Part shown: piece by piece, positions 10,516 to 35,812 of the stretch
Layout of the letters: each line of letters opens with the position of its first letter
Position numbering within the stretch: the stretch's first letter is position 1
NCBI GenBank assembly: GCA_951406725.2
Contig: OX597819.1
Location: 51,584,001-51,648,000, forward strand
Source: Octopus vulgaris
Lineage: Eukaryota
DNA: 64,000 bases
Direction of reading: 5' to 3'
The notes under the pieces: model-generated
What the model was told of the DNA's origin: nothing
Database searches by the model: none
What the model saw: only the letters and a program-made list of their open reading frames with translations
Made by a program: the position numbers and the translations under genes

Positions 10516-11200
10516 AAATATGTATATGTATATTCATTATCATCTGGGCAATAACCTCAAAACGTGCATTTAAAAGCTTCCATACGGTTATCGGCTACCA
10601 TATACCATCATACGTTTACAGGATATACACATGGAAATCCATTTGTGTACGCAGAAATTTATATACACATTTATAAAAATTTCTAGTTCTCTCCCTCTTT
10701 TTGCTTTATATATATATATTAATAAATTTCAGGGTAGTAAAATATTATTTAGAAATTTTTTACCACCGTGGCCTAGCGAGTAGAAAAACTAGTCAACAGA
10801 CTATATATTATTCATTATATATACTGTGTAACTGTGTACATTTAAACACATATGAGATGGCCATAATCGGACATCTAAACCGCTAGAAGGAGTAGTTAAA
10901 ATCCAAAACCTAATTGTGGTTTGGATTTTAACTACTCCTTCTAGCGGTTTAGATGTCCAATTATGGCCACCCCTTATGTTTAAATGTACACTATATATAT
11001 ATATATTTCGTTTTTGGATTTGGTTTGCAAGATTCTTTATGTGAGTTCATGTCTTGAAGCATATTCTTTTGTGTCTGGGGAGAGTCATTTTCTTTTTGTG
11101 CCTTATAATTTAACACACTCACCGGTAAAATTTTACTGGTGAGTGTGTTAAATTATAAGGCACAAAAAGAAAATGACTCTCCCCAGACACAACATATATA

Positions 11201-13045: not shown

Positions 13046-14415
13046 TTTTCTTTCTAGTTTCAGCTCAGAGCTGCGGCCATGCTGATGCACCGCCGTTTTG
13101 CTACATTGTTATTACTAAGAGCCTCTTCTAATATGCGGTACTTGGTGACGAATGGAGTTTGATATAGCTACTCTCATTTGCACCTCTTGCCGTGAGGTAG
13201 GTTTATCTGGGACTCTCGACAGGAAGAAGTCCACCTTTGATTTAAAAACCCCTACATCTACTTTGTGCAGGTTCCTCAGACTCTTCGAGAGAATATTAAA
13301 AAAGTGGGGTCCCCTGAAACCCAGGCTGTTGCAGTAACTGGTCCTGAAGCGCGGTGGCGTTGCTGGGATATTTGGCACTATGATGTGTCATCCCGTTCTG
13401 GAATTGGTGTAGCTTTCAATGCCAAAATTTGGCACAATTCCTTCCAGGATCTTCCAGATGTATATTACTGCATACATCTCCCGTCTTCTTTACAGGGAGT
13501 AGAGTTTTAGCTGTTTCAACTTTTCCCAGTAGCTGAGCTGTTGTAAAGAGACGATCTTCTCTGTAAATCCTCTCTGGATTGCTTCAAGGTCCGCTGTTAA
13601 TTTCACACTGGTGGGTGACCATAGCTGTGAGTAGTAATCCAGGCGGCTGAAGACGAATGTCCGCCAGAGGACCATCATGGTTTCCTTATCTCTGGTTCTG
13701 AATGTTCTTAGGATCCATCCAGCCAGTCGTCTGCACTTTGTCGCCATCCTGGTGATGTGCACTTGGAAAGAGGTATCATCACTTATGTCCTTACCCAGGT
13801 CCCTCACTGATTTAGGCTCTGGGATCGTAATTCCCTGTGGACAGGTGTACTCTGTAAGTTTAATATTCAGTTTTGGATGCTGGTAGCGCAGGGCTTGAAC
13901 TTTTTCAGCATTAAACTGCATATTATTATCCTCAGCCCATCTGTAAATCGAGTCCAACTCCTGCTGCAGGTGTGCAACATCACTGGGGTTCTGTATTTTC
14001 TGCGAGACTTTCGTATCATCTGCATAGCTTGCAAGAGTTGCTATCCGGGCATTTGAGGGCATATCTGAGAGGGCCACTATAAAAAGTAGTGGTCCCAAGA
14101 CAGTGCCCCGTGGAACACCGCTCACTATTTGTGTGTTCATAGAGGTGGCTACATTAGTCACTACTGCCTGACTCCTATCTTTCAGGAAGTCATGTAACCA
14201 CTCTCCAAGTTTTCCAGCTATGCCAAGGTCACGCAGTTTGTGGCATATCATACCATGATCCACCTTGTCAAAAGCTTTTGCAAAATCAAAGTATATTATG
14301 TCCACATTTGATTTGTTGAGTAACTGCCTCAACACCCAGTCATAATGTTGTTAAGTGCTGAAATCATGCAGCTCCTACCTGGTCGAAAGCCATGCTGGGT
14401 ATCACTCAGCAAGTT
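13046..14415 (-). mobile_element. 5'-truncated non-LTR retrotransposon (CR1/L2/Jockey-group LINE): disrupted RT C-terminal half plus 3' UTR
   Basis: ORF 13490-14335 has RT motifs YFDFAKAFDKVDH, SGVPRGTVLGPLLF, YADDTK, VRDLG, RLDYYSQLWSP; upstream QHGFRPGRSC; frame-broken continuation to 13115 (GPHFFNILSKSLRN, FKSKVDFFL). Confidence 0.93.
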
Positions 14416-26346: not shown

Positions 26347-27038
26347 ATTCGAACCATTCTGCCTGTTCACCATCCTAATAAGAGATTAACAATTAACTAA
26401 AATCATTATAATTAATGCTCAGTTTGAAATTTTCAGGTTAGTAGAGAGGATCGAATTCTAAAAGGTCTCATGTTCCGGAGGAGGCCTAGTGGGGCAGATT
26501 TTAGCGAAAGTTATATCATGTGACATAATGTTGGAATGATAAGCGATGAAGGAGACGTATGTTGGGATGTACTCTTTACTCTTTTACTTGTTTCAGTCAT
26601 TTGACTGTGGCCATGCTGGAGCACCGCCTTTAGTCGAGCAAATCTACCCCAGGACTTATTTTTTGTAAGCCTAGTACTTATTCTATCGGGTTCCTTTTGC
26701 CGAACCGCTAAGTTACGGGGACGTAAACACACAAGCATCGGTTGTCAAGCGATGTTGGGGGGACAAACACAGACTCACAAACACACGTACATATATATAT
26801 ATATATATTTCTTTACTACCCTCAAGGGGCCAAACACAGAGGGGACAAACAAGGACAGACAAAGTGATTAAGTCGATTCCATCGACCCCAGTGCGTAACT
26901 GGTACTTAATTTATCGACCCCGAAAGGATGAAAGGCAAAGTCGACCTCGGCGGAATTTGAACTCAGAACGTAACGGCAGACGAAATACGGCTTCGCATTT
27001 CGCCCGGCGTGCTACCGTTTCTGCCAGCTCGCCGATAC

Positions 27039-27113
<75 letters not shown>

Positions 27114-27538
27114 TATACATATATATATATATGTCCCCCCAACATCGCTTGACAACTGATGCTGGTGTGTTTACGTCCCCGTAACTTAGCGGTTCGGCAA
27201 AAGGAACCCGATAGAATAAGTACTAGGCTTACAAAAAATAAGTCCTGGGGTAGATTTGCTCGACTAAAGGCGGTGCTCCAGCATGGTCGCAGTCAAATGA
27301 CTGAAACAAGTAAAAGAGTAAAGAGTACATCTCAACATACGTCTCCCTTATCGCTTATCATTCCAACATTATGTCACATGATATAACTTTCTCTAAAATC
27401 TGCCCCACTAGGCCTTCTCCGGACCTTTTAGAATTCGATCCTCTCTACTAACTTGAAAATTTCAAACTGAGCATTAATTATAATGATTTTAGTTAATTGT
27501 TAATCTCTTATTAGGATGGTGAACAGGCAGAATGGTTC

Positions 27539-27542
<4 letters not shown>
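26347..27542. repeat. Inverted duplication with ~415-bp arms (26347-26765 / 27132-27542) comprising unique flank plus SINE A 3' half
   Basis: attcgaaccattctgcctgttcacc...gttggggggaca reverse-complemented; near-identical ORFs 26511-26738(-) and 27159-27386(+). Confidence 0.95.
26807..27034 (-). mobile_element. SINE family B, intact monomer in the spacer of the inverted duplication
   Basis: Close match to the reverse complement of 2040-2270. Confidence 0.92.
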
Positions 27543-27591
<49 letters not shown>

Positions 27592-27620
27592 CAAAAATAA
27601 GCAACAAGAATGGATCCAGT

Positions 27621-27710
27621 AATTAGTACAATTGTTTCATACTATAACAATTTATTAAAGCTGCAGATATTACAGCAGATATTAATATGTCAAGTAATCT
27701 TCAGCTAATT
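27621..27710 (-). ncRNA. Type I hammerhead ribozyme with extended stem II
   Basis: AAUUAG-CUGAAGA-[uUACU UGACA UAUUAA uaucu GCUGUA auauc UGCAGC u UUAAUA aau UGUUA u AGUA u]-GAAAC-AAUU-GUA^-CUAAUU: canonical core, 6-bp stem I, palindromic stem III, GUA cleavage triplet. Confidence 0.85.
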
Positions 27711-28376
27711 TCATATAGGTTTTCCAATAATGTACAGTTCTCAGATCAATTAGTAACATCCTAGAGAAGGTTGACAGCCTACTCTATTATTTCTGTAAGA
27801 AATAATAGAGTAGGCTGTCAACTCTGTTCTTTGGAGACCTACGAGATTTTAAATTATCGAAATAATAAAAATCTACTAAATAATCGGCTAGAGCTAGGTC
27901 TGTCTTGCAGTCATTCAAAAATTAGAACTTTCAAATATTTTATATAGAAATTTTAAGGTTTTCCTACTTTTTCTAACTGTATCTTTTTAATATAATAATA
28001 ATATGAAATATACTATACCAACCTTTAACTGACTTTTATAGTCAACTAAAGTAACCTTACTTTAATCATGGAATTGCACATTTTCCCAATTCTATTCTAA
28101 ATTTAACATGTAATACTATTCCCCTAGTTATAAAATTCGATATTTTTTTGCCCTTCTTTTCTCCAGCTAACTTGCTCCCTTAACCTGCCCCTACTACCAT
28201 TCTTATAACTAGGGAAATTTTTCTTGCAACAGTTAACTGTGAACTTAATCTTGGTCTGCTTGGCATCCTACTTCATGTTCCTGAAATTCATATCTACAGC
28301 TTTATCGGTATATTTACCTTCTCTAGGATGTTACTAATTGATTTGAGAACTGTACATTATTGGAAAACCTATATGA

Positions 28377-28465
28377 AATTATCTGAAGATTACTTGACAT
28401 ATTATATCTGCTGCAATATTTGCAGCTTTAATAAATTGCTATAGTATGAAACAATTGTACTAATT
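28377..28465 (+). ncRNA. Type I hammerhead ribozyme, second copy
   Basis: aattat-CTGAAGA-...gctgca atatt tgcagc...-GAAACAATTGTA-ctaatt; one stem I mismatch next to the core. Confidence 0.78.
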
Positions 28466-28589
28466 ACTGGATCCATTCTTGTTGCTTATTTTTGATTATA
28501 ATCACCCCGCATAATTTTATGAGTAATACCATAAAAAATTCTGGTGCATCTAAATTAAGAACCATATTCATTTGAATCTAAATTGTTTG

Positions 28590-28629
<40 letters not shown>

Positions 28630-28630
28630 T

Positions 28631-28794
28631 ACGACGGGCTTCTTTCAGTTTCCGTCTAACAAATCCACTCACAAGGCTTTGGTCGGCCCGAGGTTATAGT
28701 GGAAGACACTTGCCCAAAGTGCCACGCAGTGGGACTGAACCCGGAACCATGTGGTTGATAACCAAGCTACTTACCACACAGTCACTCCTGCGCC
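28631..28794 (-). mobile_element. SINE family A 5' half
   Basis: acgacgggcttctttcagtttccgtc...ttaccacacagtcactcctgcgcc. Confidence 0.9.
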
Positions 28795-29659
28795 TATTGT
28801 ATGCATAAATTTGTATATTTATGTCAGTTCATGCGAGTACATGTATATGTGCTTACCCACTAATCTGTTTGTGTGCTAGTTATGAGTTTTCTATGGAATT
28901 TTATAAAGTGTATTCAAATTCTAATGGATCGACTATGGATAATATCCTTTCTCCTCATCTACCTTACCTTGGACATTAATGTCTTGAGTCCTAAAGTCAC
29001 TCTCGCATATACGTGACCGAGGTCACAACATTCCCACAACGCGACGCCGATCCGGGAATCAAAATGTCGATATTGCTTTCGTGGGTGTCATATGATAACC
29101 ACCTTTTAAATTGTTATATATTGTTTATGTAAAATGCTGCAAAATTGAAGAGATGGTAATGGCGATTAAATCAGCTTTAGCACATAGCCGGGTTATATCA
29201 ACTCATTTTATTAATTCCGGAACGATGAAATAAAAAGTTGACATTGGAAAGAATTATTTTCAGATTCTGAATTATATCTGATGTTGTTCTCGATTCTGCC
29301 ATCCATTGGAAACTATAAAGACGAAAGGAAGTGCAAGATATTCAAATTTTCAGAAGAGAAGGAACATTTATCCCTCGTGTCTGCAAAAGAACCATTTTAA
29401 AATGACAGTTGATTGTATATAAAAGTGCACATGATGACAACAAAATTATATGGCATGTATGTGTGTATGCGCGCGCGCGTGTGTGTATGTGTCTATGGTT
29501 TTATATTCAGTTATAATAGAAACAATTTTACATTAATCTGAAGAATTACTTTATACTTTCGTAGCGTACAAATTTATTATTCTTTAACGAGAATACTATT
29601 GACACGGGCTTCTAAGTTTCGGTCAGCTAAGCCACCACCGGACTCATATATATCTGTGT

Positions 29660-29739
<80 letters not shown>

Positions 29740-29754
29740 GTGCCTTTAGTAGAA

Positions 29755-29810
<56 letters not shown>

Positions 29811-29934
29811 ATACATATAGTAATGTATATGCTTTGTGTATTTTCCGGTGGCTGCAACGGCGTAGCAGAGTATATAACTCTCATATTGTCGGTATTAAAA
29901 CACCTTAGATTCATGGACAGGTGAGATAACTCAC

Positions 29935-30032
29935 CTTCAATCCCATTTGGGAGTAATAGACATTAATGTTTCGCTTATTTTGTGGATTTTCAACATCACG
30001 TACCCGCCTGGATTGAAGCAACGACTTATATG
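29935..30032 (-). CDS. Candidate internal exon (YKSLLQSRRVRDVENPQNKRNINVYYSQMGLK; alternative acceptor at 30007)
   Basis: Consensus donor aag/gtgagt, phase 0; acceptors ccacaag (30032) or ttcaatccag (30007). Confidence 0.3.
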
Positions 30033-30216
30033 CTTGTGGACAGATAAATTGAATATATAAACATGCACACATTTGTTTATGTATATGTATATATGTATAT
30101 AAATTCATACACACACACACGCATACTTGCATTCAAGTTAATATATGTATGTACATGTTCTTTCACAGATAATCATAAATAAATATATACTAAAAAAAAA
30201 TGTACACACAAATAAA

Positions 30217-30594
30217 TGTTTCTTTATTAGCCGCAAAGGGTTGAACACAGACAGGACAAATTACAAAGTAGGGCTTTTCTTTTGGGGGAGAAAAAAAAGT
30301 GGGGTAGGTTTTCAATCAAAAGGGATCGTAAAAAGGAAAGAAAAAGCGATCAATAGGTATCATGTATCACAGAGATGTCATGGTGTAAAGTGTAAAGAGG
30401 GAAGCAGATAAGGCTTATCCGTGGAAAGAAAAGCCTACGGAAAAGACCGCGGTAACCTCGGTCAATAATATCACATGTTAACACATTTATTTGCAAGTAA
30501 GTAACTCTCTGTTTTAAATTTTTCTGGATTCATAGGATTATGTTCAAGGTAGCTTCGTCATTCATACGTGCCATCCTTGCTACATTCACCCATC
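30217..30594 (-). mobile_element. 3' end of a LINE, possibly L1/Tx1-like
   Basis: Minus strand ORF end WVNVARMARMNDEATLNIIL* followed by a ~310-nt UTR ending ...ctgtgttcaaccctttgcggctaataaagaaa; clade assignment from recollection only. Confidence 0.5.
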
Positions 30595-31724
30595 AACAAA
30601 AGTACTCGTACATCACCTTGTTTTTACCGCTACAACTACTGCGTAGTTGCTCCTCCATACACTTTTGCGTTCATCTTTTCCTTTCAAACTTTCTCCCTCT
30701 ACGGTCTCAATTCCCAACCTCTTCTTCTTTAACAATATCCTTTGCATAGATCACACACACAACATACACACGTGCCCGCACAGACGCAACACTTAATCAC
30801 AATTCCATAGTCTCACTAAACTCAATCCGTATTTAACCGTATTTGCTCTGTGCATCTAGCCTAGAACAACGATTTTATAGAACCGACACTTTGTCTACAA
30901 TTTCATATGTATGTAGGGGTTTATATATGTGCAGCAGATCATCAGGCAGGAAAGGGCTGTGGTGGTGGCAGGGATGAAGAAGTGTGTCACATGGTCATGA
31001 GCCATTCTCATTCTCTCAAACATTCTAAACTCGATTCATTGTGATAACTCACTTTCTCGACGGTATACTTGGTATTTAGAAAGTGATAATAACATGCCGT
31101 ACATTGATAAATGTACTTAGCGATTAGTTATTTGGATTCGCTAATATGCTGACTAGATTTGAGATACCGATAACGAGGGATAAATATTGCTGGTTACGGC
31201 GAAGATTTATTCAAAGATTACTGCGTTTGAATGTTGCCTTTATACGTTGTCATCACATCAATAATTGCTTCCCTTCTTTTTGCTTTTTCTCTTTTTCTTA
31301 TTTTTTTTTATCTATTATTTATTCTTTTTTATTCATTTATTTATTTTTTTATTTTTTGGCTTTACTATATCTATAATAAACGATTCCATTTTAGAAATTG
31401 ACTCATATCGTATCTATTATATTGACATATACAAACTACTGTAGTATTTGCTGTCGATAAAAGTAATCTATTTGCATATATTTTCGAGGATTGCCAATCA
31501 ACGGAAAGCAATTTTTCTTTATTCTTTCCTCTTTTTTTTTTTTTTTTTTTTGTTTTTTAGTACGTTAGTTTCCATTTCCATTAAAACCAGCAAGCTCGCT
31601 CTTGAAAGAAACTTAAGAACTCAAATATAAGTGTCATAACTTCTTACACGCGCTTTGAGTACTGTTACATAAATAACAAACGAAGTAGTCAGGTCACATT
31701 TACATTATCTATATGTAGCAATTG

Positions 31725-32065
31725 AAATGCTTAGTGCTGTTTCGTCTGTCTTTATGTTCTGAGTCCAAATTCCGTCGAGGTCGACTTTACCTTTTTATCT
31801 TTTCGGGGTCGATAAATTAGGTACCAGTTGCGTTCTGGGGTCAATCTAATCGACTGGCCCCCTCCCCAGAAGTTTCTGGCCTTGTGCCTATAGTAGAAAA
31901 GAATCGTTTGCACACCGGACGAAATTCCTAACGGTATTTCGTCTGCCGCTACGTTCTAAGTTCAAATTCCGTCGAGGTCGACTTTGCCTTTCATCCTGAT
32001 GTCGATCTAATCGACTGGCCCCCTCCCCAAAAATTTCGGACCTTGTACCCGGAGTAAAAAAGATT
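31725..32065 (+). mobile_element. SINE family B partial copies in tandem (another at 32948-33150)
   Basis: gagtccaaattccgtcgaggtcgactttacc...cggggtcgataaattaggtaccag...ggccttgtgcc. Confidence 0.85.
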
Positions 32066-33179
32066 ACTGTGCTCCTATCTTTGAAATGTTGCTCTCCCCA
32101 CTTCCAACTTCCAGTCATTTCCAAAACGGAGTTGACTAAAGATACGGACCACAATTTTTGCTTCCTTACAACGTGTTTTTTGCTGCTCTTTTCATTTTTC
32201 ATCGTTCTTTTTATCTTCTTTCTTTTGATAAAGTGCTGCCATCCGAAACGTTGGATTGGGCTGAATAATGAACTAATGATGAAAGCTATTATGGTATTTT
32301 TTATTTTATCTTTTGTGTTATTATTGTCATGATTTATCTATTTATATCTATTTGAATAACATCTCTCTCACACACACTCTCTCTCTCTCTCACTCAGTCT
32401 CTTTCTATTTATATTTATCCACTTATGCATATTTATAGGGAGAAAGAGGAGGGAAGAAGAAGAGAGAGCCGAAAGTCAGAGAGACAGAGAGAGAGAACAA
32501 GAGCGAGATTAGTAATACTTATGTACATGCATGCTTGTGTCTCTTATAATATGTGTAATATATAGGTACATATACATGAGAGCGGGTATATGTATGTATG
32601 TGTATGTGCGCGTGTGTGTGTATGTTTATGTGTGTGCACGTGCACGGTTCAGCCGAAATCACAGCTAATGCCACGAAAAGGTTATTCAACCGTACCACTT
32701 ATCAAATCAATACACTCAACAAACATCTACGTAGAAAATAATAAAAGTACATTTTTCCACGTACATTGTTGTCATTTAATTCCAGGTTGGCACTCCTTTA
32801 GCAGACCTATGAACAAAGCCTTCTAGCCATGACCGTCCCGTTGTTTTTTGTTCGCTTGTTTGTTTGTATATTTTTTAAGCGTCATATAACAAAACACATT
32901 AACTAATATGGATATAGACAGCGTTTTTAATAATAACTTGTTGCCAAGGCGGTGAACAAGCAGAATCGTTAACACATCGTGTAGAACACTTAACGGCATT
33001 TCGTTCGTCTATACGTTCTGAGTTCAAATTCCGTCTAGGTCGACTTTACCTTTCGTGCTTTCGGAGTCGATAAAATAGGCATCAGTCGATGTAATCCACT
33101 TACCCTCTCCCCTGAAATTGCTGGCCTTGTGTCAAAATCTGAAACCAAAAATAATTAGTAGCATTGTGATTTAAAATTG

Positions 33180-33473
33180 TTTATTCCTTCTACAGCCACG
33201 CCTCGCTCATAAGGGCTGGTTTCCCGGTTTCCTTGGTGTATAGGATCCCCACCTAGACGGGACGCCGGTCCGTTGCAGGTGAGCTGCAAGATGCAGGAGG
33301 AAAGAGTGAGAGAAAGTTGTGGCGAAAGAGTCAGCAGAAGTTCGCCATTACCTTCTGCCGGAGCCGCGTAGATGTTTCGCTCGTAAACACACACATCGCC
33401 AGGTCTGAGATTCGAACCCACAATTCTTCGACCGCAAGTCCGCTGCTCTAACCACTAGACCATGTGCCTCCAC
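33180..33473 (-). mobile_element. tRNA-derived SINE, head C + tail 1 variant
   Basis: Minus: ggaggcacatggtctagtggttagagcagcggacttgcggtcg...ggttcgaatc...ctctttcgccacaactttctctcac...ggcgtcccgtc...gaaaccgggaaacc. Confidence 0.85.
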
Positions 33474-33769
33474 GTGATTTAAAATAAAATTGATTATTTT
33501 TATAAGGTTGAACTGTTGTCTAGATGCTCCCTCGGTTTGCTTATTGAGTTATTGTGGTTGTTGTTAATGCAATTGCTGCGCTTCTGTTAGTTACAGGTCA
33601 TCCCTGACTGAATAAACCTATGGTAAATAACTGCTAGGCCCATAAGGTATAGTCCCTCGTCTATTTCTTCCGGCCCATATTTGCACTTCTTTGAGAACCA
33701 TATGTATTCAATAACACACTACAACCACTGTCTCAATAACAATCTGTTACCTCACAACAATCACGCTCA

Positions 33770-34147
33770 GGCGTGGCTGTGTGGTAAGAAGCTTGCTATC
33801 CAACTGCATGGTTCCGGGTTCAGCTCCAATGCATGGCACTTTGGGCTAGTGTCATCTACTAACCCTCGGCTCGACCAAATGCTTGTGAGTGGATATGGTA
33901 AAGGGAAACTCAAAGAAGCTCGTCGTACATATATACATATATACATAAATACATGTGTGTGTGTCTTTGCATCTGTTTTTGTTACCAACCACCGCTTGAA
34001 AACCGGTGTTGGTGTGCTTATGTCCCCGTAGCCTAGCTTTTCGACTTTTCAAAGAAAAAGAGCATTGCTATCGATTCATTCAACTAAAACTGCTTTAAGA
34101 CGGTGCCCCAGCATGGCTGCAGTCGACTGACACAAATAAGAGATAAA
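33770..34147 (+). mobile_element. SINE family A inserted into a minisatellite
   Basis: ggcgtggctgtgtggtaagaagcttgc head; cggtgccccagcatggctgcagtc tail. Confidence 0.85.
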
Positions 34148-34169
34148 TGATTATCTCACAAACGAATGC

Positions 34170-34343
34170 TCATAACAATCACTGTTATCTCACATCAATC
34201 TCTATTATCTCACAAAAATCACTACTATCTCACAACAGTCACTATTATCTCGCAACAATCACTATTATCTCACACAAATCACTACTATCTCACAACAGTC
34301 ACTATTATCTCACAACAATCACTGTTATCTCACAACAATCACC
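34170..34343 (+). repeat. 20-bp minisatellite (tcactattatctcacaacaa), ~9 copies; degenerate units also at ~33710-33765
   Basis: 20-nt periodicity directly visible. Confidence 0.93.
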
Positions 34344-34487
34344 ACTTAACAAACGAGATACTGTCTCATCCTGCGTCCTTTAACGTGATTGATTAAAACT
34401 TCTGCTCATCTTAACCAGTTAGTTACGATGCAGGTGGTGGTGGTGGTAGAGGGGAAACACTGACACAAACACACACACATATATATA

Positions 34488-34650
34488 AGTTCAGCAAAAT
34501 TTAGATTCAGATGAATATGGTACTTAAGTCAAAGGCACCAGAATTTTGTATGGTATCCATATAAATCAATGGGGGTGATTTTTTATTAAAATAAGCAACA
34601 AGTACATCCGAGGTAGAGTGGTACAATTGCTTCACACAATTGTTTGATAT
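34488..34650 (-). mobile_element. Truncated relative of the 27588-28591 element (3' half of HHR + terminal sequence)
   Basis: Minus gaagcaattgtacc...cttgttgcttatttt...atcacccc...aaaattctggtgc...ccatattcatctgaatctaaatt aligns by eye to 28448-28585. Confidence 0.8.
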
Positions 34651-34661
34651 ATATATATATA

Positions 34662-35812
34662 ATACGACTGGCTCCTTTCAGTTTCCGTCTACCATTTCCA
34701 CTCACAATGCTTTGGTCGGCCCGAGGTTATAGTAGAAGACACCTTTCCAAGATGCCACGCGGTGGAAATGAACCCGGAACCATGTGATTGAGAAACAAAC
34801 TTCTTAAATCTACCAAATTTCTCCTTTTCTCCGCGTTTTTCGAATTGTAAATCCTTGTTGATTACTTGACTAAATTCTTTCTCTGCAAAACTGATAACCT
34901 TTACACATTGCCCACCCTCTCTCTAAACCATGTGTTTTCTCTACAAACATGACACTCATATTGGTTTCAAATTTTGGCACCAGGCCAGCAATTTCGAGGA
35001 TGTGGGTAACTCGATTACATCGACTCCACTTGAGTACTGGTACTTATTTAGCGATCCCGGAAGCATGAAAGGAAAAGTCGACCCCGGCGGTATTTGAACT
35101 CAGAGCGTACAGACGATGAAATATCGCTAAGCATTTTGCACGGTTTGCTAACAATTCTATCAGCTCGCTGCCCCAACTTGACCTAAACAATAACAGGGTC
35201 TCTCACACGGAATACTCTGAGTTATCTCTCTCTTGTTCTACTTACGTTCATACTGATCGTCAGCAACATCAATTACACTATCAAGGGAGGACATAAAAAT
35301 GCAATAAAGTTTTTCCACTTTTACTCTAACTCACAAAATTTTTCTGGCATGTTGTGATTTATCGTACAAGACTAACTGTGGCTGTTGGAGCATGTTGAAT
35401 TTAATCCATTCTCCATTTTGTTCTTCATTGACTTTAAGTTCATGTCGGGGCGACAAGACAGATTTACGTCTAATAATTAGGCAAGATATTTATCGTTTCT
35501 CTTCATTCCAGCCTTTGGTTTGGATTTAATAATTTCGTTGATGCTGTGATTAATTTTGTATGCTTGTTGCATCTGTGCATGCTGAGAGAGAGAGAGAGAG
35601 AGCGAGGCGGGGATTATTTTAACACGTTTCAGTCATTTGGCTGCGGCTATGCTGGAGCACCACTTTAAAGGGTCTTAATCGCCCCCAGGACTTATTCTTT
35701 GAAAGCCTAGTACTTATTCTATCGGTGTCTTTTGCCGAACCACTAAGTTACAGGGAGAGAAACACACCACCATCAGTTGCTAAGCGATGGTGGTGGAAAC
35801 ACATACACAAAG

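Follow-up and report, generated by a model that had tools for sequence, protein, structure and literature searches.

A truncated, inverted Penelope-like element of Octopus vulgaris and its putative hammerhead motifs with a long, conserved stem II

About one kilobase of the Octopus vulgaris genome, enclosed by two (TA)n tracts, carries two outward-facing copies of a hammerhead-like motif in which stem II is unusually long, and it raises the question of what kind of element this is and what its putative ribozymes do. An earlier note on this DNA proposed a non-autonomous, retrozyme-like family derived from a Penelope-like element (PLE), transcripts of which could cleave themselves from either strand. 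We analyzed the locus within the 64,000-nucleotide stretch that contains it (the window) and compared it with related copies in the genome. The explanation that best accounts for the results, and in which we have high confidence, is a truncated, inverted copy of an autonomous Hydra-type PLE, whose conserved long-stem-II hammerhead fold likely cuts the RNA of the parent element and is predicted to be trapped at this locus.

The features of the locus are collected in Table 1. Inverted arms were indeed found between the (TA)n tracts (27586-27771 and 28316-28500, 97-98% complementary), and the two pLTR arms that they contain differ by 4 substitutions and 1 indel. Both arms carry CTGAAGA-N58/59-GAAAC-AATT-GTA, on the minus strand at 27704-27627 with a 59-nt spacer and on the plus strand at 28383-28459 with a spacer of 58 nt, and the placement of the left core agrees with the cut predicted in the earlier note between 27627 and 27626. 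The 6-bp stem I described for the left copy is present. In the right copy, the core-adjacent pair of stem I is broken by a private substitution, and there are 0 contiguous bp. The proposed relative at 34488-34650 aligns to the tail of the element, but it has only the 3' half of the core, with GAAG replacing GAAA; a 20-nt minisatellite of ~8.7 copies (34169-34346) lies directly to the left of this second stub. On the other side, a (TA)n tract just to the left of the element is flanked by a 266-nt inverted pair (26500-26765 and 27132-27397, 97% complementary) of a very high-copy short repeat.

Table 1. Features of the element and of a neighboring stub, in window coordinates
Feature	Position	Strand	Basis or remark
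Left (TA)n target tract	27541..27589	.	sequence
Inverted pLTR arm	27590..27770	-	ends at insertion site 1, 37 nt past the predicted cut
Putative type I hammerhead, left copy	27621..27710	-	alignment, covariation, folding
Left hammerhead, stem I	27710-27705/27626-27621	-	
Left hammerhead, core	27704-27698	-	
Left hammerhead, stem II	27697-27639	-	59 nt
Left hammerhead, GAAA	27638-27635	-	followed by palindromic stem III
Left hammerhead, predicted cut	27627/27626	-	
Perfect 24-bp hairpin	27771..27821	.	head-to-head inversion junction
C-terminal remnant of GIY-YIG endonuclease frame, with stop codon	27798..27947	+	translated match
3' untranslated region	27948..28315	+	deletion of ~370-390 nt at 28143/28144
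Forward pLTR arm, up to site 1	28316..28500	+	arm comparison, family copies
Putative type I hammerhead, right copy	28377..28465	+	58-nt stem II; predicted cut 28459/28460
One-sided tail, site 1 to site 2	28501..28591	+	stops ~6 nt before the usual site 2
Right (TA)n target tract, then unrelated high-copy repeat	28592..~28631	.	
Separate shorter stub of a related subfamily	34488..34650	-	tail and 3' half of hammerhead core only

The element had been described as having no open reading frame (ORF), and this description must be withdrawn. Positions 27798-27944 are the last 49 codons of a reverse transcriptase (RT)-endonuclease gene, and they match an intact 957-aa ORF elsewhere in the genome (locus L202) with 65% identity over the C-terminal 48 aa (E 2e-21); the remnant itself retains CxxC and CxH. 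In the 2.8-Gb assembly (227 contigs), a 3'-end query consisting of the right-hand 283 nt of the element yielded 2,791 first-look candidates, of which 40 were scored and 30 fetched, and a query with the endonuclease end yielded 463 first-look candidates genome-wide. A family-level core pattern gave 3,698 genomic matches versus 0 for the reversed pattern, so the motif is not a product of chance. The 30 fetched copies share a common 3' end at a TA run and are truncated on the 5' side at many different points. An inverted arm occurs in 13 of the 30 loci (two of them duplicates), and it stops where the left arm of the window copy stops. Near-identical truncated inverted copies also recur every ~8-18 kb at G000:C29:29.56-29.69 Mb (L086-L097), apparently within a larger tandem duplication.

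Longer copies continue upstream into a CxCX5C linker, an asparagine-rich insert and an RT with YRDD, and one of them is a near-complete, decayed unit of ~3.9 kb (L066). The asparagine-rich (AAT)n insert, located between RT and endonuclease, is variable (L032-L058) and prone to frameshifts, and inserts described for rotifer Penelope elements resemble it. In two further loci, L201 and L202, a pair of long-stem hammerheads ~4.6 kb apart encloses an intact ORF (949 and 957 aa, respectively), and four copies of this kind are 94-98% identical in DNA. These ORFs (L201:1871-4720 and L202:1877-4750, on G000:C15 and C19) represent a young sister subfamily with many near-identical copies, which has probably been active recently. 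Because young sister copies have intact ORFs, the family is autonomous, and the window copy is a truncated member of it with a further deletion. Judged from its sequence, the element is derived from an autonomous PLE with Hydra-clade protein motifs by 5' truncation, 5' inversion and internal deletion. A separate decayed RT frame in the window, at 13118-14350 on the minus strand (286-aa open stretch, YADD motif), is one that we take to belong to a LINE-type element.

The Penelope-like origin suggested in the earlier note is borne out by the endonuclease remnant and by the sister copies with intact RT-endonuclease ORFs. The single ORF of L201 and L202, with an RT and a C-terminal endonuclease, has the arrangement of EN+ PLEs, and other hallmarks of that group are present: pLTRs that arise from partial tandems, inverted 5'-truncated copies, and a tail on one end. 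Insertion is into (TA)n, given that 93 of 105 copies reach a TA run within 260 nt and most of the other 12 continue into the ORF. At the RT N-terminus of L201 and L202 we found RIRWK at 35 and ADKTG at 123, corresponding to the RWK and DKT motifs that, with CxCX5C, CxxC and CxH, are published for the Hydra clade (PMC8557442). No CCHH motif was seen by eye in the endonuclease translations. The Naiad clade, with an N-terminal endonuclease and no canonical hammerhead, differs from L201 and L202, in which the endonuclease is C-terminal. The longer sister copy L040 matched the Pfam GIY-YIG model at the cut-off; Pfam had no match for the window remnant, for two RT/linker fragments or for the full ORF, and the RT domain was never matched. 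Among metagenome contigs searched by protein for relatives outside this genome, 140 candidates were considered and 0 were confirmed.

Members of the Hydra clade with a C-terminal endonuclease (EN+), such as Hydra-1_Obim and Hydra-2_Amil, share with the octopus family RWK, DKT, CxCX5C, CxxC, CxH, the position of the endonuclease, (TA)n targets and a hammerhead in the pLTR (PMC8557442). The octopus unit is longer, at ~3.9-4.65 kb versus "generally <3 kb" as published (PMC8557442), and it differs also in its asparagine-rich insert (16% N). In all 26 Hydra rows of File S2 of PMC8557442, stem II has 3-7 bp and a 3-10 nt loop (~26 nt or less), compared with 58-63 nt here. Hydra-1_Obim is itself excluded as the identity of the family, since its N-terminus and hammerhead differ; a near match to its published hammerhead occurs separately at G000:C1:1328887. 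With a unit of 3.9-4.65 kb and a stem II of 58-63 nt, the family is a variant and, on its protein motifs, a probable member of the Hydra clade. A 2026 octopus repeat annotation reports recently active Penelope-like families, and neither "hammerhead" nor "ribozyme" occurs in the available portion of its main text (PMC13282606).

These observations bear on the proposal that the element is a non-autonomous, retrozyme-like unit that spreads as such and cleaves itself from either strand. It is compact, high-copy and mostly non-coding, and it has two ribozyme motifs, all of which would suit a retrozyme. Animal retrozymes, however, are defined by non-coding tandem repeats with a hammerhead in each unit (bioRxiv 10.64898/2026.07.22.740005, in its available part), and no tandem array extends over this element, which contains a coding remnant from the end of an endonuclease gene. 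Moreover, the 1-kb layout is found in no other copy among the 30 fetched, truncation and inversion points vary from copy to copy, and sister subfamilies have intact ORFs. We regard the retrozyme-like reading as very improbable and already largely refuted.

The inversion has left a visible junction. The 24-bp hairpin at 27771-27821 is perfect, as had been stated, with a 3-nt loop and a z-score of -13. In L003 and L012, its two halves map to a single, overlapping part of the endonuclease gene where the hairpin is missing, so it is an inversion junction and not a family feature. It consists of an inverted copy of ~29 nt of endonuclease-coding sequence that faces the forward copy, and the two are joined at a 2-nt overlap. 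The inverted arm then skips ~880 nt between this endonuclease stretch and the pLTR, with 2 matching nt at the jump. Junction palindromes of inverted copies have been described (PMC3846280, available text). Interpretations of the hairpin as a conserved RNA element or a microRNA were considered and rejected on these grounds. A near-perfect hairpin of ~60 bp elsewhere in the window (11064-11196), which scores below threshold against several microRNA models, is probably a small inverted-repeat transposon or another junction. With regard to the origin of the arms, 15 of 111 arm differences match family polymorphisms versus 10.6 expected (in the 32 of 34 pairs with enough relatives). The use of different RNA templates for the two arms is therefore unsupported, and the differences, being mostly private, indicate one common source.

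The window alone says little about whether the motifs are hammerheads. Folded by themselves, the left and right copies are no better than shuffled sequences (z 0.0 to -0.6). In the Rfam search that had been recommended as a check, the hammerhead family was absent among 12 matches at E up to 10 for 27592-28590, and the 150 matches listed of 435 over the whole window included only below-threshold hairpin and microsatellite matches. Support for a ribozyme was consequently sought among relatives. From 103 distinct motifs, 26 sequences were chosen by hand to span subfamilies and were aligned, and pairing was scored on a structure of our own drawing. All eleven core positions are invariant in 26 of 26 sequences while the stems change, and the type I core of CUGANGA, GAAA and UH is present with stems I, II and III. 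Pairing is maintained in 89.6% of cells, versus 78.5% after shuffling (0 of 500 shuffles as high) and 29-50% for slid partners. Changes on both sides were found in 16 of 26 pairs (stem I 6/6, basal stem II 7/10, apical hairpin 2/6, inner palindrome 1/2), in counts that overstate independent events because they are based on related sequences, on our own choice and on our own drawn structure.

Other comparisons point the same way. At the inner pairs of the palindromic stem III, 96% of cells remain paired, and 7 sequences show a double change from AU to GC. RNAalifold recovered, unprompted, six basal and six apical stem II pairs; stems I and III were not recovered. In 115 copies found by flank similarity, among which overlapping loci may have been counted twice, differences from the nearest of four references number 15/1,265 in the core and 855/9,095 at other sites. 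The arm difference GCUGUA/GCUGCA had been offered as a substitution that preserves pairing. It is a one-sided change and by itself no evidence; the pair concerned does covary over subfamilies (UA 11, CG 10, UG 4). The aligned relatives thus support well a hammerhead fold of type I in which stem III is palindromic and the long stem II covaries.

Stem II has three parts: a 10-pair helix at its base, an irregular middle rich in A and U, and a 6-bp hairpin at its apex. The pair at its base is U-U in the subfamily of the window copy and G-C or G-U in most others, and is unpaired in 9 of 26 sequences. The predicted monomer hammerhead fold lies 1.6-4.4 kcal/mol above the minimum. For all 3 of the sister subfamilies compared (L202, L101 and L077), a strand-swapped dimer equals the co-fold of lowest predicted energy, and for the left window copy it lies within 1.6 kcal/mol of that co-fold. 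The predicted dimer energies fit the dimer model of PMC4209133, as far as its available text describes it.

It might be argued that the hammerhead shape is kept mainly as a platform for binding or dimerization, and that cutting is rare or dispensable for copying. The marginal folding energy and the U-U pair at the base of stem II would agree with this view, as would the low activity reported for metazoan PLE hammerheads (PMC4209133, available text). In Poseidon PAc, the one Penelope element tested in vitro, according to the available text of PMC11167929, ribozyme mutants still inserted in vitro, so that cleavage was unnecessary for insertion there, and no RNA ends were found at the cut site. 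However, the catalytic core is invariant while the stems change, and U-U at this position is common in published Hydra hammerheads (PMC8557442) and was noted also in an axolotl hammerhead (PMC7229834, available text). We therefore consider a mere platform rather unlikely. Instead, it is probable that the parent RNA is cut after GUA, either by a strand-swapped dimer or with the help of the element's protein. The long stem II is most likely a structural or protein-binding arm, maintained through selection that acts on active parents.

The copies at this locus are probably in a different situation from those of the parent. Whichever strand is transcribed, the antisense arm is transcribed ahead of the sense ribozyme, and in the minimum-energy fold 76 of 78 motif bases (minus strand) or 75 of 77 (plus strand) are paired with the far arm. 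There is one sense ribozyme per strand, and hence no dimer partner in cis. According to these folding predictions, the locus is probably silent, with each ribozyme trapped by the opposite arm. Self-cleavage of transcripts from either strand, as the earlier note had envisaged, is therefore doubtful, all the more so with stem I of the plus copy broken, and the burial predicted for the ribozymes in the arm-arm duplex counts further against a retrozyme that cleaves on both strands.

The same predictions apply to the idea that the left ribozyme was adopted by the host to cut an intronic transcript. This copy has an intact core and a 6-bp stem I. On the other hand, the arms have decayed by private changes, as in other old copies, the antisense arm is predicted to sequester the ribozyme, and the dimer partner in cis is missing; adoption by the host is highly improbable. 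Contigs of four presumed-RNA runs that were aligned to 27130-35800 consisted mostly of repeats and provided no usable splice joint. As a separate observation, an AG lies immediately before the core (28370-28383, plus strand) and a GTAAA lies upstream (in L081, upstream of the pLTR); judging from these short signals, they could mark an intron that ends at stem I. An intron of this kind has been reported for Drosophila Penelope.

How such inverted copies arise can be approached through their ends. Among 105 distinct copies, a set biased by how loci were found, the end lies beyond the predicted cut by 25-50 nt in 45 and by 120-165 nt in 43, so that 88 of 105 end at one of two sites; of the remainder, 12 have no TA run (mostly tandem junctions that continue into the ORF) and 5 end elsewhere. 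Site 1 is ~35-40 nt and site 2 ~125-160 nt past the predicted cut, ~95-120 nt apart, and both lie inside the 5' leader at TTATA/TATA-like words. The counterpart of the tail in tandem copies is part of this leader, ahead of the ATG. We scored the first head-to-head loci among the core-pattern matches on contig C1 (24 loci, one of them unscorable), and in 23 of 23 inverted pairs there was one arm at each site, an outcome with a probability of ~1e-7 if arms chose independently at even odds. Site 1 is also the sole 3' end of direct copies, for example L066, L201 and L202. A literature search, exclusive of the Repbase and Dfam libraries, uncovered no description of a strict one-of-each rule.

By analogy with Poseidon PAc (PMC11167929, available text), sites 1 and 2 may be RT start sites. 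In PAc, two RT start sites downstream of the hammerhead define and explain the tail, targets are AT-rich, both target strands are extended, and the hammerhead is protein-assisted. The starts of PAc lie inside the ORF and are not homologous to the target, whereas both ends here lie in the leader at TTATA/TATA-like words. PAc also shows no strand difference in its start sites, and so does not predict strict one-of-each ends such as the inverted pairs of the octopus family have.

In the mechanism that we propose, the parent RNA would be cut after GUA, as a dimer or with assistance from the protein. Since both insertion ends are downstream of the cut, copying must cross the cut point on RNA that is uncut, re-joined or tandem, and an uncut, circular or tandem template would allow this. 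The endonuclease would nick both strands of the (TA)n tract, and the two DNA ends would prime reverse transcription, one at site 2 and one at site 1. Synthesis of both copies would end prematurely, in the case of the left copy once it had jumped from pLTR to endonuclease sequence, and head-to-head joining at a 2-nt microhomology would create the 24-bp hairpin. Compared with fold-back, its main rival, we lean slightly toward this priming by both nicked strands.

In the fold-back alternative, a single cDNA primed at site 2 would snap back at a small palindrome, copy itself with a jump, and be cut or captured at site 1. Resolved in this way, it accounts for the same DNA. The palindrome at the junction, a perfect hairpin with 2-nt microhomology, fits self-priming equally well, a single source for both arms agrees with it, and one-of-each ends are predicted by it also. 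Self-priming with resolution by the endonuclease has in fact been proposed for such elements (PMC3846280, available text; PMC8557442). Against fold-back, site 1 alone forms the 3' end of direct copies, as would be expected of a true RT start, and in PAc there are two start sites and each of the target strands is extended (PMC11167929, available text). Fold-back is thus a possible but less likely account than priming from two nicked strands.

The leader between ribozyme and start codon may itself be structured. Ribozyme plus leader fold at z -4.6, with a closing helix that covers the start codon; in L072:1381-1565 and 13 other tandem junctions, the leader is predicted to form a multi-branch fold whose closing 11-bp helix takes in the start codon. 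In this predicted fold, both insertion ends are in unpaired UAUA-like stretches, each immediately 5' to a helix that bears a hairpin. Six of eight single folds, with mostly weak z-scores, show a CACC/GGUG helix immediately beyond site 1. Covariation is nearly absent (a two-sided change is seen at 2 of 41 consensus pairs among 14 close sequences), so the predicted leader structure is only a lead.

Much of the layout of this locus was already known. Inverted, 5'-truncated pLTR insertions have been described with head-to-head arms, a junction palindrome, a tail at one end, internal deletions and N-rich inserts (PMC3846280, available text; PMC8557442). Published tails are 30-40 nt (PMC8557442), versus ~95-120 nt here, and one-sidedness is called "optional" or "often" present (PMC3846280, available text; PMC8557442), versus the strict pattern in 23 of 23 pairs. 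The locus itself is probably a dead, inert stub. What appears to be new is the stem II of 58-59 nt, in a motif that Rfam misses, together with the excess of long-spacer cores across unrelated families and the two fixed insertion ends, of which each scored inverted pair uses one of each. Minimal type I hammerheads of metazoan PLEs have the same conserved core, short stem I and palindromic stem III suited to dimers, with a helix II of at most 7-8 bp (PMC4209133, available text) in place of the long three-part arm. A published precedent exists in PLE-X1_sMoe and PLE-X1_sTam, which have a long stem II region of ~50-54 nt and are marked as non-canonical (PMC8557442 File S2). They are from plant, endonuclease-less elements, two isolated cases with no covariation in the table. 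In PMC8557442, cores were searched with spacers of 7-17 nt, and mention is made of eight Naiad "half cores" with a spacing of 35-50 nt. In the literature covered, including the available text of PMC6765202 and exclusive of the Repbase and Dfam libraries, which may contain this family, we found no description of long-stem-II hammerheads as a class in animal PLEs.

To estimate how common such motifs are, we conducted a genome census with exact core patterns and a reversed control, in which matches may overlap and do not represent copy numbers: spacers of 7-25 nt gave 44,519 core matches versus 4,697 in the control (excess ~40,000), 26-43 nt gave 21,833 versus 6,923 (~15,000), and 44-72 nt gave 54,995 versus 7,390 (~48,000). 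Long spacers make up ~46% of the excess hammerhead-like cores genome-wide, and the ~100,000 cores above control, with spacers of ~7 to 72 nt, are distributed over many unrelated sequence families. In the 593 kb of fetched DNA, 19 long-spacer cores occur outside the query family versus 0 in the reversed sequence, and 9 of the 19 passed the tests for stems I and II. Twenty loci picked for diversity had 21 matches, of which 9 passed all three stem tests, versus 0 of 118 loci that matched a loose core pattern in metagenome contigs (1 of 64 parts scanned). One of the diverse loci, L169, encodes a related endonuclease (48% identity, same cysteine motifs), and the remaining 19 had no protein match. 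With L168 (G000:C1:9288000-9300300), L169 represents a second, distant family with a long stem II and unequal ends of 126 and 41 nt; unequal ends, of 221 and 66 nt, were observed also in L157.

The broadest interpretation, which we put forward tentatively, is that long-stem-II hammerheads are a large, uncounted class (~48,000 sites in many unrelated retrotransposon families, or nearly half of the hammerhead-like cores of this genome) that escapes Rfam and published short-spacer descriptors, and in which the long arm would be the first module of a folded RNA "origin", made up of ribozyme and 5' leader, that places an RT dimer at two start sites ~100-120 nt apart, one for each target strand. If true, this would explain the strict one-of-each rule and offer a direct way to examine how inverted ends are formed in Penelope elements. 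If the class is of this size, animal censuses that use short-stem-II descriptors (7-17 nt spacers, PMC8557442) would be large undercounts, and the class would provide natural variants that show how much stem II can carry. The family also bears on what the ribozyme does in Penelope elements and on how their inverted ends arise. With young copies that have intact ORFs, two sharp ends and a one-of-each rule, the octopus family would allow twin priming and fold-back to be tested against each other in vitro.
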